Virus record (IMG/VR): IMGVR_UViG_3300023179_003795
Location: 64,001-98,485 of that record
DNA: 34,485 nucleotides
Strand: one strand, 5' to 3'
Source of the DNA: a virus
Taxonomy: Duplodnaviria > Heunggongvirae > Uroviricota > Caudoviricetes
Each line of letters starts with the position of its first letter. Positions within the stretch are counted from its first letter, which is position 1. Positions 27,692 through 32,373 of this stretch are shown here, piece by piece. The position numbers and the translations under genes were made by a program. A model generated the notes under the pieces. The model was not told the DNA's origin, ran no database searches, and was given only the letters and a program-made list of their open reading frames with translations.

Positions 27692-28114
27692 TTACTTTCC
27701 ACTCGAGCCAAATGCTCCATTACCTCTATGAGTTTCACTTAACTCACTCACCTCTTCTAATTCAATAGTTGGGTAAGGTATAACTAATAATTGTCCAATC
27801 TTATCACCAACATCATACACTTCACCATTATCCCAATCCAATTTCTTAAATCTAAACTTGATTTCACCCCTATAACCTGAATCTACAACCCCAACGTGAT
27901 TCGCTAATATTTGTTTTGTTTTACTAATTGATGATCTCGGAAATACTAATCCAACATAACCTTCAGGTATCTCAACAGCAATGTCTGTACCATATTCATA
28001 AAACACTTCACTCTTGACTAATGATGTCGCCACCATATCCATACCAGCATCACCAGGTTTCGCATACTTCGGTGTTACCGCCTTTTCACTTAATTTTTTA
28101 AATCTTACTCTCAT
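27692..28114 (-). CDS. dut: Trimeric dUTPase
   Basis: All five motifs are present: AGMDM, RSSIS, GVVDSGYRGEI, GDKIGQL, RGNGAFGSSG. Confidence 0.95.
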   Translation of the reverse strand: MRVRFKKLSEKAVTPKYAKPGDAGMDMVATSLVKSEVFYEYGTDIAVEIPEGYVGLVFPRSSISKTKQILANHVGVVDSGYRGEIKFRFKKLDWDNGEVYDVGDKIGQLLVIPYPTIELEEVSELSETHRGNGAFGSSGK

Positions 28115-29127
28115 AATATTGCTTTTTTATATAATTTTTTTTCTTTTTCCATGATTATGTAAAATGGTTTAAAAAAATCAATGAATCCCAAATCTGATTT
28201 TGGCATATATGAATAGATACCATCATTTATCATCTGTTTCATTAATACTTTATAATCCCTACCATCAGGATTTAAAACACCATTTATTAATTCATCATCA
28301 ATCCGTTCTTTTACGTTATCAGTTAGCAAAGGTTGGCTTAAATCAATAATCTTTTGATTTGTTATATATAGGTTTTCACCCATCACACCGTGTTTTGATT
28401 TTCCGTTAATGAGATTTCTTAATACTGAAGCATCTCTACCTCTCGATTCAGGTAATAATTGTTTTGCTTTTTCAAATACCCATTCTAATGTTTTTTCTTC
28501 TTTTACTAACTCTGGAAATAACTTAAATAATGTTGCTTCACCCATACCATAAACACCTGCTATGTTATCCGAATTACAACCTGTTAAAACTTTTACTAAA
28601 CATATATTTTTATAATGATAATCTAAATACTTACTCCAATTTTTTTTATTTATGAAATCTCTTTTATCCGCTAAATAAACTTCAGTATTCTCACTAATTG
28701 TTTGTAATATATCCCTATCACCGGTATAAACATATTTATGTTCATTTGGAGTATTTAAACAATAATAAGCAATGGTATCATCAGCCTCAGACCCTTCATC
28801 TTCAAATTGTCTTAAATATAATTCTTCACAATAATATTGGGATTTAATTTTTTGAATGTTAAATTGATAGTCTTTATCAATTTTATTGTTTATCTCTTCT
28901 CGTTGTATTTTGTATTCAGGGTAAAATGTTCTTCTATAATCTTTGGAGTTGGATCCGTCCCAGAAAACTAGCACTTTATCAGGGTATATCTTATTTATCA
29001 TCATCTTTATTGTGATGATAAACTGATATAACCCACCTATCTTATCTTCATTAAAGATAATATTTTTAGCCCCTTTAGTTCCCCTTTTTAATAGATAATT
29101 ACCATCTACCACTAATGTTTTTGTCAT
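28111..29127 (-). CDS. 5'-3' exonuclease/flap endonuclease (T4 RNase H / Pol I N-terminal-like)
   Basis: LVVDGNYL, VFWDG, EADD, TGDRD, and LTGCNSDNIAGVYGMG helix-hairpin-helix motif. Confidence 0.9.
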   Translation of the reverse strand: MTKTLVVDGNYLLKRGTKGAKNIIFNEDKIGGLYQFIITIKMMINKIYPDKVLVFWDGSNSKDYRRTFYPEYKIQREEINNKIDKDYQFNIQKIKSQYYCEELYLRQFEDEGSEADDTIAYYCLNTPNEHKYVYTGDRDILQTISENTEVYLADKRDFINKKNWSKYLDYHYKNICLVKVLTGCNSDNIAGVYGMGEATLFKLFPELVKEEKTLEWVFEKAKQLLPESRGRDASVLRNLINGKSKHGVMGENLYITNQKIIDLSQPLLTDNVKERIDDELINGVLNPDGRDYKVLMKQMINDGIYSYMPKSDLGFIDFFKPFYIIMEKEKKLYKKAIL

Positions 29128-29158: not shown

Positions 29159-29437
29159 TCAAACAATTCTTAAAATACCTTCACCATCTCTCCACACACT
29201 ACCCTCTGTTAATCCTATTGGACTGATAGGTAAATTATTAAACACAATACCACCATTTGTAATTGTATTAGTGTTAATATTATCATAATTTATTTGATTA
29301 TAAATCCTACCATTATTCCCACCATTAACTATATAATTATCAATAGTTAGGTTGGTATTATAGTGTAAATCAATTACACCCGTATTTATATCAATTAAAG
29401 GTTTTTTCCCACCTATTAAATTTTTTAAACTTCTCAT
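29159..29437 (-). CDS. Mini-protein with tail-fibre-like C-terminal motif
   Basis: 92 aa, Asn/Ile-rich, ends LPISPIGLTEGSVWRDGEGILRIV; ATGA-coupled. Confidence 0.55.
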   Translation of the reverse strand: MRSLKNLIGGKKPLIDINTGVIDLHYNTNLTIDNYIVNGGNNGRIYNQINYDNINTNTITNGGIVFNNLPISPIGLTEGSVWRDGEGILRIV

Positions 29438-29673
29438 ACAAATACCCTTCCATTTACATTTGGCATTTGGACAACACCATAATTATTAGGATTTACCTGA
29501 ACGGATGAGTATCTACTACTAATACTCATCACCGGTTCTAATTGAGTCGGTATATATGGAGCAAATACTAAACCAGTATTTAATACGCCAGCATTTCTTA
29601 ATACAGGTTCCCACTCATTGTTTAACACATTTCTTAACTTTCGTTGTGTATTATATTGTTTTATTGTTCTCAT
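29434..29673 (-). CDS. Mini-protein resembling joined N- and C-terminal segments of gp23-type major capsid protein
   Basis: NEWEPVLRNAGVL and GLVFAPYIP...EPVMSISSRY...VNP compared with recalled T4 gp23 NKWKPLLEGEGL and GIYYAPYV...QPVMGFKTRY...INP. Confidence 0.6.
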   Translation of the reverse strand: MRTIKQYNTQRKLRNVLNNEWEPVLRNAGVLNTGLVFAPYIPTQLEPVMSISSRYSSVQVNPNNYGVVQMPNVNGRVFV

Positions 29674-29677
29674 TACT

Positions 29678-29800
29678 ATGAACTACCCAACCACTAAAGA
29701 TGGTTTAGGCTTCCTACTTCTATGAGGGTCTAATGACTTACTCTCCGTAGGCATTACTTCAGGTTGATCCAACCTTAGTGCGTTTAACGCAAATCTTTTT
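29678..29800 (-). ncRNA. Putative omegaRNA scaffold overlapping the tnpB 3' end
   Basis: Successive hairpins TGCGT/ACGCA, AGGTTG/CAACCT, CCTAC...GTAGG enclosing GTC/GAC, and AACCA/TGGTT ending at the right end; the 5' boundary is approximate. Confidence 0.55.
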
Positions 29801-30870
29801 ATATTATTAGCCGCCAATACATCTCTTTCATGTGTTGTCCCACAACTATTACAAGTCCATCCCCTATCTTTTAATGTGAGGTCATTATTTATTACACCAC
29901 ATGAACACATCTTAGAACTAGACTCAAATCTACCTATTTTTAATATATTCACCCCATTCCATTCGGACTTATATTGTAATATATTTAAAAACATCCCCCA
30001 AGATACATCATTTATTGATCTGGCTAATTTATGGTTTTTAACCATTCCTTTTATATTTAAATCTTCTATACAAATAGTTTGGTTTTCACTAACTAGTTTA
30101 GAAGATATTTTATGAATATTATCTATTCTCTGATTGCTTATTTTTTCATGTATTTTAGCAACCTTTATTCTTTGTTTATTTCTATTATTAGAACCTTTTA
30201 CTTTCCTACTTAATTTTCTTTGCTCTCTTTTTAATTTCTTTAATGATTTATTTAAGAACTTATGATTTTCATATTTAACACCATTAGAAGTAATAATAAA
30301 ATCCTTTATACCTAAATCAATACCTATTGTTGTTTCTTCAGTTATACTATTTTTAGGTTTATTATTTTCATTTGTTTCACATAATATACTCACAAAGTAT
30401 TTACCGGTGGGTGTTTTACTTATTGTCGCTTGTCTTATTTCACCATTATGAGGTCTATCTATTTTAATGTTAATACCTTCTTTAAACTTAGGTATTATTA
30501 ATTTATTATCTTTTAATATAATAGATTGTGGTATCTCAAAACTATGATAATTATCACGCTTTGATTTAAACTTTGGAAAACTATTTTGTTTTCTGAAAAA
30601 ATTAGTAAAAGCAATATCTAAATGTCTATTAGATGCTTGTAATGCTTGTGAATTAACTTCTTTTAACCATGAATATTCTTCTTGTTTTTTTAATTCAGTT
30701 AATTGTTTATCTAAGTCAAATTTAGTTAATCTTTGTTTTTCATTCTGATACGCTTTAATTTTCTTACCCAAAGCCCAATTATAGATAAATCTAACAGATC
30801 CAAAGTGTTTATTTAACAATTCGGATTGGTTAATATTAGGGTATAATCTATATTTATATGATTTTAACAT
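29683..30870 (-). CDS. tnpB: RNA-guided endonuclease TnpB
   Basis: N-terminal YKYRLYPN HTH; RuvC residues IGIDLG, ICIEDL and HERDVLAANNI; zinc ribbon CSCG...CNSCG. Confidence 0.95.
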   Translation of the reverse strand: MLKSYKYRLYPNINQSELLNKHFGSVRFIYNWALGKKIKAYQNEKQRLTKFDLDKQLTELKKQEEYSWLKEVNSQALQASNRHLDIAFTNFFRKQNSFPKFKSKRDNYHSFEIPQSIILKDNKLIIPKFKEGINIKIDRPHNGEIRQATISKTPTGKYFVSILCETNENNKPKNSITEETTIGIDLGIKDFIITSNGVKYENHKFLNKSLKKLKREQRKLSRKVKGSNNRNKQRIKVAKIHEKISNQRIDNIHKISSKLVSENQTICIEDLNIKGMVKNHKLARSINDVSWGMFLNILQYKSEWNGVNILKIGRFESSSKMCSCGVINNDLTLKDRGWTCNSCGTTHERDVLAANNIKRFALNALRLDQPEVMPTESKSLDPHRSRKPKPSLVVG

Positions 30871-30876
30871 TCTATA

Positions 30877-30884
30877 TATAAATA
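30877..30884 (-). promoter_or_regulatory. TATTTATA motif upstream of tnpB
   Basis: TATTTATA-tataga-ATG, the same motif and spacing as in front of structural genes. Confidence 0.55.
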
Positions 30885-30928
30885 GTTAAAAATTATAAAA
30901 AGTACTTGTTTTAATTAAAAAAAATTCA

Positions 30929-31174
30929 TTAATGTAAATCATTATTTAATAGGTTTCTAATAATATTATTATCAATATTTCCACTTAATTCTTCACTTAA
31001 CAACCTTGTTAATTCAGCCTCAGCATCTATATTATGAAACGCAGAAATATCTTGAACCATTTCAGGTGTCCAAATCACTCTAATTGATCGAGCACCAACA
31101 TTAACATTAACAGTTCTTAAATTTAATTTAACTTTCCGTTTGTTTTCAATAATGTATTGATTTATAGTTCTCAT
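30929..31174 (-). CDS. Mini-protein containing the spine-helix segment of gp23-type major capsid protein
   Basis: ARSIRVIWTPEMVQDISAFHNIDAEAELTRLLSEEL...ID compared with recalled T4 gp23 SRQLKAAYSIELAQDLRAVHGMDADAELSGILATEI...IN. Confidence 0.75.
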   Translation of the reverse strand: MRTINQYIIENKRKVKLNLRTVNVNVGARSIRVIWTPEMVQDISAFHNIDAEAELTRLLSEELSGNIDNNIIRNLLNNDLH

Positions 31175-32373
31175 TTCAATACCGATCTATAAAATTCCAT
31201 CCTATTTTTTGATACAAAATCTAAGTTATATTTTTCTTTTACAGTTTCATATAACGCTTCACCCATATCTTTTATTTGTTCTGGGTTATTAATTAATTTC
31301 TTAATTGTTTTATGCCAATCTTTATGACTTCTTTTTTGTTCAATTAAAAACCCATTCTTACCATCAATAATATCTTCTGAATATGGTTCAATATGTGACG
31401 CAATTAACGCTTTTTTATGGAAACCCGCTTCCATTACTTTCAAGGATGATTTAACCCTATTAAACTCAGTTTCCACTAATGGTGCTAACGATATATCAAA
31501 GTAGTTATAGTTTGTAGCATATTTGTTAATTGGTAATGTCCATCTTCTTCTATATGGTTCATTCTTATCATCAAAATTACCTTGAGTAAATCTTTCTAAG
31601 TAATTCTTATATTGTGGTGAAATTATATTATAATTATCCGTTACAATCTTTTCATAATCATACCATACAGTTTCGTGTGGTTTAATTGGTTCTTGCATTT
31701 GCTCACCTGTTTGAGCATTTATGGTTGTTTTTGTCCCCCTTAAATCAAAACCACATAACACAAATTGTATTTTACTTATTACATTATTATCACCTGATAA
31801 AACATTTGTTACACCGTGTAATAATTGTAAATCTTTTAAATGTGATGAACCACCTAAATAACCTACACCAATTTTATCGTTTTCTTCTCTATTTGGAATA
31901 AATTGTCTATCTCTTGGATTAATAGCGTTAGGGAATATTACCACATTCTTATTATATTGTCTTATCTTAGAAGCAAAATATTCATTTGTTGTTGTAACAT
32001 AATCAAAAATCTTTAAGTTCTCAACTATTTTTTTATCTATTTGTTGAAATTTTACTATTTGATATAATCCGTGTGATGGATCAACCAACCAATGATCATC
32101 AATATCACCAATAATTATTTGATTTGGATTTTGTTGTTTTAATCTTTTATATATTTCAGGAGTAGCCCCAATATCAGGTGTTAAACTTCTATGACAGAAT
32201 ATAATATTATAATCTTTATACTTTGTAATATCTGTAAAGTCAGATATATCAATAATATCTATATGGATATCATTCTGAAACATTTCTTGTAGATGGACAT
32301 GAGGCCATCTCATTCTGTAAGCACCTACACCTGCCCCATCAATTGTTGTAACCAACATTTTAATTTTACTCAT
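31171..32373 (-). CDS. Glycosyltransferase, GT-B fold
   Basis: DIDDHW, YVTTTNEYFA, VVIFPNAI, GYLGGSSHLKDL and DISLAPL...KSSLKVMEAG...ALIAS motifs. Confidence 0.85.
   Translation of the reverse strand: MSKIKMLVTTIDGAGVGAYRMRWPHVHLQEMFQNDIHIDIIDISDFTDITKYKDYNIIFCHRSLTPDIGATPEIYKRLKQQNPNQIIIGDIDDHWLVDPSHGLYQIVKFQQIDKKIVENLKIFDYVTTTNEYFASKIRQYNKNVVIFPNAINPRDRQFIPNREENDKIGVGYLGGSSHLKDLQLLHGVTNVLSGDNNVISKIQFVLCGFDLRGTKTTINAQTGEQMQEPIKPHETVWYDYEKIVTDNYNIISPQYKNYLERFTQGNFDDKNEPYRRRWTLPINKYATNYNYFDISLAPLVETEFNRVKSSLKVMEAGFHKKALIASHIEPYSEDIIDGKNGFLIEQKRSHKDWHKTIKKLINNPEQIKDMGEALYETVKEKYNLDFVSKNRMEFYRSVLK

Follow-up and report, generated by a model that had tools for sequence, protein, structure and literature searches.

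A 79-residue mini-gene carrying the C-terminal strands of a T4-type capsid protein, and its siblings, in an uncultured freshwater phage

Introduction

Capsid proteins form the core of phage assembly and are among the main triggers of bacterial defences. The N-terminal helix of the major capsid protein (MCP), gp23, faces the scaffold in the T4-type prohead, and the Gol peptide of T4 gp23 triggers the Lit protease of e14 through EF-Tu. We know of no sensor for the C-terminal strands of gp23. The nearest annotated precedent for the locus described here is the T4 gene pair alt.-1 and alt.-2 (NC_000866), annotated as the product of an old duplication that covers the first part of alt and is interrupted by a stop codon followed by a new start. 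T4 also carries the neighbouring small genes ipI-III, which share one leader conserved at the DNA level. A literature search found no paper on capsid-fragment mini-genes.

The gene under study, ORF79, was found on a 98.5-kb IMG/VR viral contig from lake water (G+C 28%; completeness estimate 30%), the final 34.5 kb of which (34,485 nucleotides) are referred to here as the window. Its carrier is a large (about 300 kb), AT-rich, uncultured freshwater T4-like phage. ORF79 is the middle member of a cassette of three translationally coupled mini-genes, ORF81, ORF79 and ORF92, each of which carries an excerpt of a virion protein.

Residues 31-71 of ORF79 correspond to T4 gp23 444-492 and residues 12-30 to gp23 4-22 (PF07068; PDB 6uzc, 5vf3 and 7vs5). 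However, ORF79 has 79 residues against the 521 of gp23; it is devoid of the E-loop, the A-domain and the spine helix and cannot form a shell, its gene lies outside the head-gene module, and no autonomous fold is predicted for it. Like alt.-1 and alt.-2, the mini-genes are small adjacent ORFs from a partial copy of a virion gene, and in cassette-bearing relatives that lack tnpB, ORF81 and ORF79 abut in a similar manner (TAATG). Unlike the alt pair, the pieces of the cassette are non-contiguous excerpts of a capsid gene behind a repeated leader; they form a recurring family that many relatives have conserved. As in ipI-III, neighbouring small genes begin with one leader of their own that is conserved in DNA, but the cassette carries virion-protein excerpts in a non-late genomic context, and ORF79, in contrast to the start of ORF81 (MRTINQYIIE), lacks the I-x-E end of the capsid-targeting sequence (CTS) of ipI-III and Alt. 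The Gol peptide offers a parallel as a short gp23 stretch with biological activity in free form that a host defence recognises, and the equivalent stretch forms an 84-aa sibling gene in relatives, whereas ORF79 itself contains the C-terminal strands and not the Gol region. Finally, the insertion next to ORF79 resembles the TnpB-only elements of the IS200/IS605 group (IS1341 type) in its HTH, OrfB_IS605 and zinc-ribbon TNB domains, the lack of TnpA and a precise presence/absence polymorphism.

Results and Discussion

Genomic context of ORF79

A sequence-only reading of this DNA had called attention to a 79-aa ORF, which is present with the sequence quoted there, on the minus strand (Table 1). 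The order of genes on that strand is glycosyltransferase, ORF81, tnpB, ORF79, ORF92, 5'-3' exonuclease, dUTPase, DnaB-type helicase and ribonucleotide reductase, and with such neighbours ORF79 is located outside the head-morphogenesis module. The stop codon of the glycosyltransferase gene overlaps the start of ORF81 as ATGA, and the same overlap joins the stop of ORF79 to the start of ORF92. Four related viral contigs have kept the arrangement from the glycosyltransferase through ORF81, ORF79 and ORF92 to the exonuclease, without tnpB. The sequence-only reading is supported in part; it overlooked the three-gene cassette, the TnpB element beside the start codon and the conversion from capsid genes, all of which are described below.

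Table 1. Coordinates of ORF79, its neighbours and related features. Positions are those of the window unless another contig is named.
Feature	Position	Strand	Basis
ORF79, 79-aa mini-gene (stop codon included)	29434..29673	minus	ORF list
ORF79 shared leader, codons 1-8 (MRTIKQYN)	29650..29673	minus	DNA-level similarity to sibling starts
ORF79 residues 12-30, gp23 N-terminal-helix-like segment	29584..29640	minus	BLASTP to T4 gp23
ORF79 residues 31-79, gp23-type capsid C-terminal piece (YAPY strand to near C-terminus)	29437..29583	minus	BLASTP, HMM, hhalign
ORF81, sibling mini-gene	30929..31174	minus	Pfam Gp23, BLASTP
ORF92, sibling mini-gene	29159..29437	minus	BLASTP
TnpB-only IS200/IS605-type element	29670..30925	minus	Pfam and comparison with empty sites
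tnpB ORF	29683-30870	minus	within TnpB element
CTATTTATA box (late-promoter-like)	30877-30885	minus	6 nt upstream of tnpB ATG
Group-1 glycosyltransferase gene, upstream neighbour	31171..32373	minus	stop overlaps ORF81 start
5'-3' exonuclease (RNase H-like) gene, downstream neighbour	28111..29127	minus	gene annotation
2025-aa late fibre-like protein	G001 29952-36026; L096 9952-16026		
Capsid-fragment ORFs flanking gp47/gp46 genes	L104 12708-15168 (G003, about 72.7-75.2 kb); L094 1465-2077 (G001); L119 5591-6209		
P0047, fusion of ORF81 to the ORF79 tail	L115 10001-10351 (ENA contig of 286,803 bases)		
Conversion tracts	L006 5786-6237 (G005) vs L069 990-1086, 1476-1586 and L078 3752-3848, 4232-4342		

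The C-terminal piece

Residues 31-79 of ORF79 show clear homology to the C-terminal strands of gp23-type capsid proteins. This piece was aligned by BLASTP with T4 gp23 (E 3e-6), with residues 472-536 of the MCP of Microcystis phage Mel-JY01 (E 4e-9) and with a set of 63 freshwater MCPs (E 1.4e-8). An HMM made from 63 full-length MCPs of this clade and run against 5205 ORFs matched ORF79 at profile positions 532-580 of 595 (E 2e-4), while hhalign of the ORF79 family profile against the MCPs gave an E-value of 4.8e-11 and 97% probability for the C-terminal half. The match to the gp23 C-terminal segment proposed in the sequence-only reading is thus borne out by BLASTP against T4 gp23 and by hhalign.

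The window copy, which is six codons shorter than those of the relatives, gave no Pfam match at E<=0.1; orthologues of relatives are matched by Pfam Gp23 at profile positions 311-353. PHROGs and Pfam returned nothing for ORF79 or ORF92. A profile built from the ORF79 family alone failed to retrieve gp23 from the PDB, and its alignment with the NHS..PN motif of EZH1/2 (E 0.23) was at chance level; a SET-domain identity was also dropped because 79 residues are too few for such a domain. The invariant tail SRY.SVQVNPNNYGV (residues 52-75) resembles that motif, which is taken as coincidence. A working capsid subunit of the gp23 type (PF07068) comprises a complete HK97 fold of about 450-600 residues, and ORF79 falls far short of this.

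The N-terminal part and the shared leader

The N-terminal part of ORF79 probably derives from the N-terminus of a T4-type capsid protein. A second BLASTP HSP, with 7 of 19 residues identical (E 0.017), covers the N-terminal segment; when residues 1-32 were compared with the whole of T4 gp23, the score of the window copy was reached by 1 of 500 shuffles. The best local match fell on gp23 4-22 for 11 of the 12 distinct Trp-bearing N-terminal variants, and the M(R)TIK start is common to ORF79 and gp23. Against the freshwater MCP clade the comparison by hhalign was not significant (P 0.14), the sole match of residues 9-32 in this split search being the MCP N-terminal helix, and slice HMMs of the N-terminal part scored at the level of shuffles. 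The proposed match to the gp23 N-terminus therefore holds for T4 gp23 and not for the freshwater MCPs, and the split HHalign comparison suggested along with it succeeded for the C-terminal half and not for the N-terminal part. An N-terminal helix joined to the last strands is still the best reading of the sequence, with the helix backed by T4 gp23 only.

Extensions of the BLASTP and HMM alignments prompted another assignment, in which residues 16-31 would be the MCP stretch just upstream of YAPY. This was rejected, since the slice HMM scored at shuffle level and the best T4 match of the N-terminal part is gp23 4-22, not 419-443.

The leader of ORF79 is shared at the DNA level, over the first 7-15 codons, with siblings that carry other capsid or fibre pieces. 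Across ORF79, ORF81, ORF92 and two gp47-adjacent mini-genes of relatives the similarity gave z-values of 4-9, and its score was reached by 0-5 of 200 shuffles. Because this leader DNA is common to four sibling mini-genes, ORF79 may have gained its start from one of them. The sequence-only reading had explained ORF79 by one deletion that removed about 400 residues of a capsid gene in frame, which the sequence comparisons do not demonstrate.

The siblings of ORF79 bear on the origin of its N-terminal part as well. The 84-aa gene adjacent to gp47 is collinear with the MCP N-terminus (E 2.5e-9, columns 24-114), as is a gp47-adjacent family of 123-133 aa (E 2.4e-7, columns 17-163), the first 45 residues of which alone gave an E-value of 1e-3. 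Siblings with the same leader that are collinear with the MCP N-terminus lend indirect support to a capsid origin of the ORF79 N-terminal part.

Sibling mini-genes

ORF81 consists of the leader followed by a P-domain strand and the spine helix of the capsid protein; it matches Pfam Gp23 at positions 131-196 (E 1.1e-14) and residues 295-358 of the Mel-JY01 MCP (BLASTP E 1e-17). In ORF92 the leader is combined with the C-terminal 25 residues of a late fibre-like protein of 2025 aa, and its end aligns end to end with the C-terminus of the protein encoded in the related contig G001 (BLASTP E 4e-6 and 9e-7). A tblastn search of phages with ORF92 gave no match.

The 2025-aa protein itself has glycine/asparagine-rich repeats and a weak Pfam match to an antifreeze beta-roll. 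Its ITIDDF motif (38-43) resembles LTID(D/N)Y of ORF92 (30-35), a similarity that is not significant, and a late-promoter-like [A/C]TATTTATA box lies upstream of its gene in G001. One public source names a member of the ORF81 family, among the relatives P0063 and P0065 (71 aa), "succinyl-CoA synthetase alpha subunit", which is probably a mis-annotation.

More capsid-fragment ORFs flank the gp47 (Mre11-like) and gp46 genes, and the positions of these fragments are syntenic in G001, L119 and the distant G003. The G003 fragments bear no MRTI leader and share a basic C-terminal tail (..KKIKQFEL, ..KKINKFKL, ..PKHKL, ..KKHKL). Further combinations were seen in metagenomes, including the spine helix with the VQPM strand, the spine helix with the C-terminal piece, and unrelated domains with the spine helix. 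On contigs of 287-313 kb ORF81 is naturally fused in frame to the tail of ORF79, and the product (P0047, 116 aa) has neither a second leader nor the YAPY strand. Near this fusion in L115 lie genes for NUMOD3 and GIY-YIG endonucleases and for a ribonucleotide reductase that bears an intein.

A tree of the spine-helix piece placed the fragments in old clades apart from the full-length MCPs. ORF79 belongs to a class of small intact ORFs that consist mostly of a gp23 excerpt, lie outside the head module and occur in rows of sibling fragments with a common leader.

The common leader raises the matter of head-targeted cargo, in which the MRTI leader would act as a capsid-targeting sequence and the products would enter the prohead, where the head protease might trim them, before being delivered together with the DNA. 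The T4 CTS MKTYQEFIAE, a decamer of the type that closes with [LI]-x-E, was confirmed at two adjacent T4 gene starts of identical DNA, and the MRTI leaders were the top CTS scorers among 585 gene starts of five contigs. The start of ORF81, which has the I-x-E ending, reached a score of 24 (z 3.6), and the gp23-N-terminus-like helix of ORF79 would be turned towards the scaffold of a T4-type prohead. However, the start of ORF79 itself, MRTIKQYNTQ, scores 16 and has no Glu at position 10, nor has the 84-aa sibling, and the cassette is placed among replication and nucleotide-metabolism genes rather than late genes. The CTS comparison was moreover picked post hoc, and we regard delivery in the head as very unlikely.

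The TnpB element

The element that separates ORF81 from ORF79 measures 1256 bp and is an IS200/IS605 TnpB element: it has an HTH, a RuvC-bearing OrfB_IS605 and a zinc-ribbon TNB (Pfam domains HTH_OrfB_IS605, OrfB_IS605 and Cas12f1-like_TNB) and is inserted precisely, without large duplications. TAATGA is found at both joints, leaving six ambiguous bases, and the insertion leaves the stop of ORF81 intact and recreates the start of ORF79. Among the cassette genomes compared, only that of the window carries tnpB at this joint. A DNA contig of run X8, from a lake in another study, skips exactly the element and represents the empty-site allele, and a contig of run X2, from a third study, matches the filled allele without a mismatch. 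Both alleles are present in lake metagenomes. A late-promoter-like CTATTTATA box was noted immediately before the tnpB ORF.

In elements of this architecture the RNA guide is given by the first 16-20 bases past the right end. Here the guide is presumably the conserved leader of ORF79, which is 100% identical in all empty-site relatives. Since this presumed guide would match the leader, the element could home into relatives that lack it. We infer such a role for the leader from the architecture, because neither Rfam (no family match at the 3' end of the element) nor RNA folding (z-score -1.0) supports an RNA there.

Conservation and selection

Orthologues of ORF79 are intact in G001, G002, G004 and G005, and the frame is open in five related contigs. 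In metagenomes, ORF79-like proteins of 70-85 aa fall into 22 clusters at 90% identity, and small proteins that resemble ORF81 into 47 clusters. All three mini-genes are open in the relatives, their indels are in frame, and their dN/dS ratios are 0.2-0.9. For ORF79 the ratio ranged from 0.21 to 0.95 (the latter in one pair) and was mostly 0.45-0.66, which is 3-10 times above the neighbours: the glycosyltransferase, exonuclease and dUTPase genes gave 0.02-0.16 at a dS similar to that of ORF79. Substitutions in ORF79 were most frequent at third codon positions, followed by first and then second positions, and in simulations of neutral substitution the frame survived in 2-12% of trials per lineage pair.

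An invariant motif, SVQVNPN.YGV, is peculiar to the family and departs from the MCP consensus; the best-conserved stretch of ORF79 is family-specific and not capsid-like. Conversely, the most MCP-like motif, YAPYIP, is altered or missing in some members and the N-terminal helix is deleted in others, so the capsid-like parts are not essential throughout the family. Selection maintains the frame and part of the sequence, if weakly: ORF79 has been kept across relatives under a constraint that is weak in comparison with its neighbours. The earlier contention that the gene looks selected rather than random is supported by the five open contigs, the 22 clusters, the in-frame indels, the third-position bias and a dN/dS mostly below 1.

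The same ratios enter into an opposing explanation, namely that the mini-genes are the debris of selfish DNA. Flanks of capsid and fibre genes would have been moved ectopically by homing nucleases or transposons, the peptides would be inert, and the frames would be open merely through the translationally coupled operon. The TnpB element sits exactly at the joint of ORF81 and ORF79 in a nuclease-rich neighbourhood, the NUMOD3 and GIY-YIG genes of the relative L115 are nearby, and in T4 segD adjoins gene 23. The duplication of the leader at the DNA level, the mosaic family members with conversion tracts and the many permuted combinations of fragments point in the same direction, as does a dN/dS far above that of the neighbours. 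On the other hand, the ratio is mostly below 1 with a clear codon-position bias, the ORF79 family possesses an invariant motif of its own, and the fragment clades are old and distinct from the MCPs. In addition, the gp47-adjacent fragment genes are syntenic in relatives whose exonuclease is only 42% identical. On the whole we consider this explanation possible but rather unlikely.

Gene conversion and the full-length capsid gene

Two tracts in the ORF81-like and ORF79-like genes of G005, 97 and 111 nt long, have 92-95% identity with the MCP genes of L069 and L078, while the flanks of the tracts remain of the mini-gene type. In the other genomes, mini-genes and MCP genes share 73-83% identity over shorter stretches. 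A capsid-like patch as in G005 is also present in the protein P0021. These tracts indicate, by sequence identity, that a full-length capsid gene has recently converted parts of the G005 mini-genes, and it can be argued from them that the lineage likely has an ordinary full-length MCP.

The cognate full-length MCP was not found on G000-G005. A protein search for longer relatives gave only MCPs of other phages, about 55% identical, and a syntenic candidate in G003 was examined and is not an MCP. Complete distant relatives have one normal MCP each and no fragments visible to Pfam.

A capsid protein encoded in pieces, with ORF79 giving the C-terminal strands in trans, would account for the lack of a full-length MCP on five contigs of 16-163 kb from the lineage, and the pieces together span elements of the P-domain. 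Yet the contigs are just 7-50% complete, and pieces for the E-loop and the A-domain are absent. The fragments, which vary by indels, differ from MCPs at positions that are otherwise invariant, the complete relatives manage with one normal MCP, and the G005 tracts imply a full-length donor like those of L069 and L078. A split capsid gene is accordingly extremely improbable.

Predicted structure and expression

AlphaFold2, supplied with an alignment of ORF79 family members and MCP tails, returned a pLDDT of 47 for ORF79, with a low-confidence helix at residues 4-27 and the capsid-like half unfolded. The predicted lack of an autonomous fold fits, but does not prove, a peptide that would fold on binding. 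The complex prediction for ORF81 with ORF79 scored 0.00, which counts neither way, and a feature search of the ESM Atlas gave no usable match.

Contigs of one metatranscriptome, in which DNA carry-over is possible, cover the tnpB, glycosyltransferase, ORF81 and exonuclease genes of a relative, and not ORF79. The late-promoter box occurs eight times in the window against 9.5 expected, not above chance, and a sigma-70 scan of the window stayed at the level of shuffles.

Proposed origin and function of ORF79

Taking the sequence evidence together, we favour, with slightly better than even confidence, the view that ORF79 was exapted from pieces of a capsid gene and is now a small accessory gene under selection, one of a class of such genes. 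It would be built from the MRTIKQY.. leader, a probable capsid N-terminal helix and the last ~50 residues of a gp23-type MCP. Ectopic recombination, or deletion in a copy of the capsid gene that retained its 5' end, may have produced it, after which it would have evolved independently for a long time, with the real capsid gene now and then acting as a donor in gene conversion.

The exapted peptide, unstructured when alone, would present the edge strands of the capsid P-domain to their usual binder, the candidates being a capsid-assembly protein of its own or a rival phage, or a capsid-sensing host factor. It would thereby compete with, or pre-empt, the capsid interaction. For function we lean towards this mimicry mechanism, although it is the doubtful part of the favoured explanation and is offered tentatively.

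A broader version would make the entire cassette a device of mimicry, supplying free interface pieces of late virion proteins from an operon of replication genes. The spine helix, the C-terminal strands and the fibre C-terminus would together act as decoys that occupy or blunt a host sensor or an assembly partner of a rival, and occasional conversion, with the real capsid gene as donor, would keep the mimic current. We think this quite unlikely.

Significance

The conservation of tiny genes that carry capsid and fibre excerpts behind a common leader suggests that excerpts of virion proteins serve non-virion uses in large phages; they could act as decoys, modulate assembly or travel as head cargo. 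Should the peptides prove inert, the locus still shows that essential late genes give rise to partial copies, which are then shuffled and renewed by conversion, that such copies persist in a hotspot of mobile nucleases, and that there is a TnpB element whose presumed guide would match a conserved leader. Moreover, this unannotated family triggers the Gp23 model of Pfam, and it may thus mislead the classification of phages by their capsid proteins.
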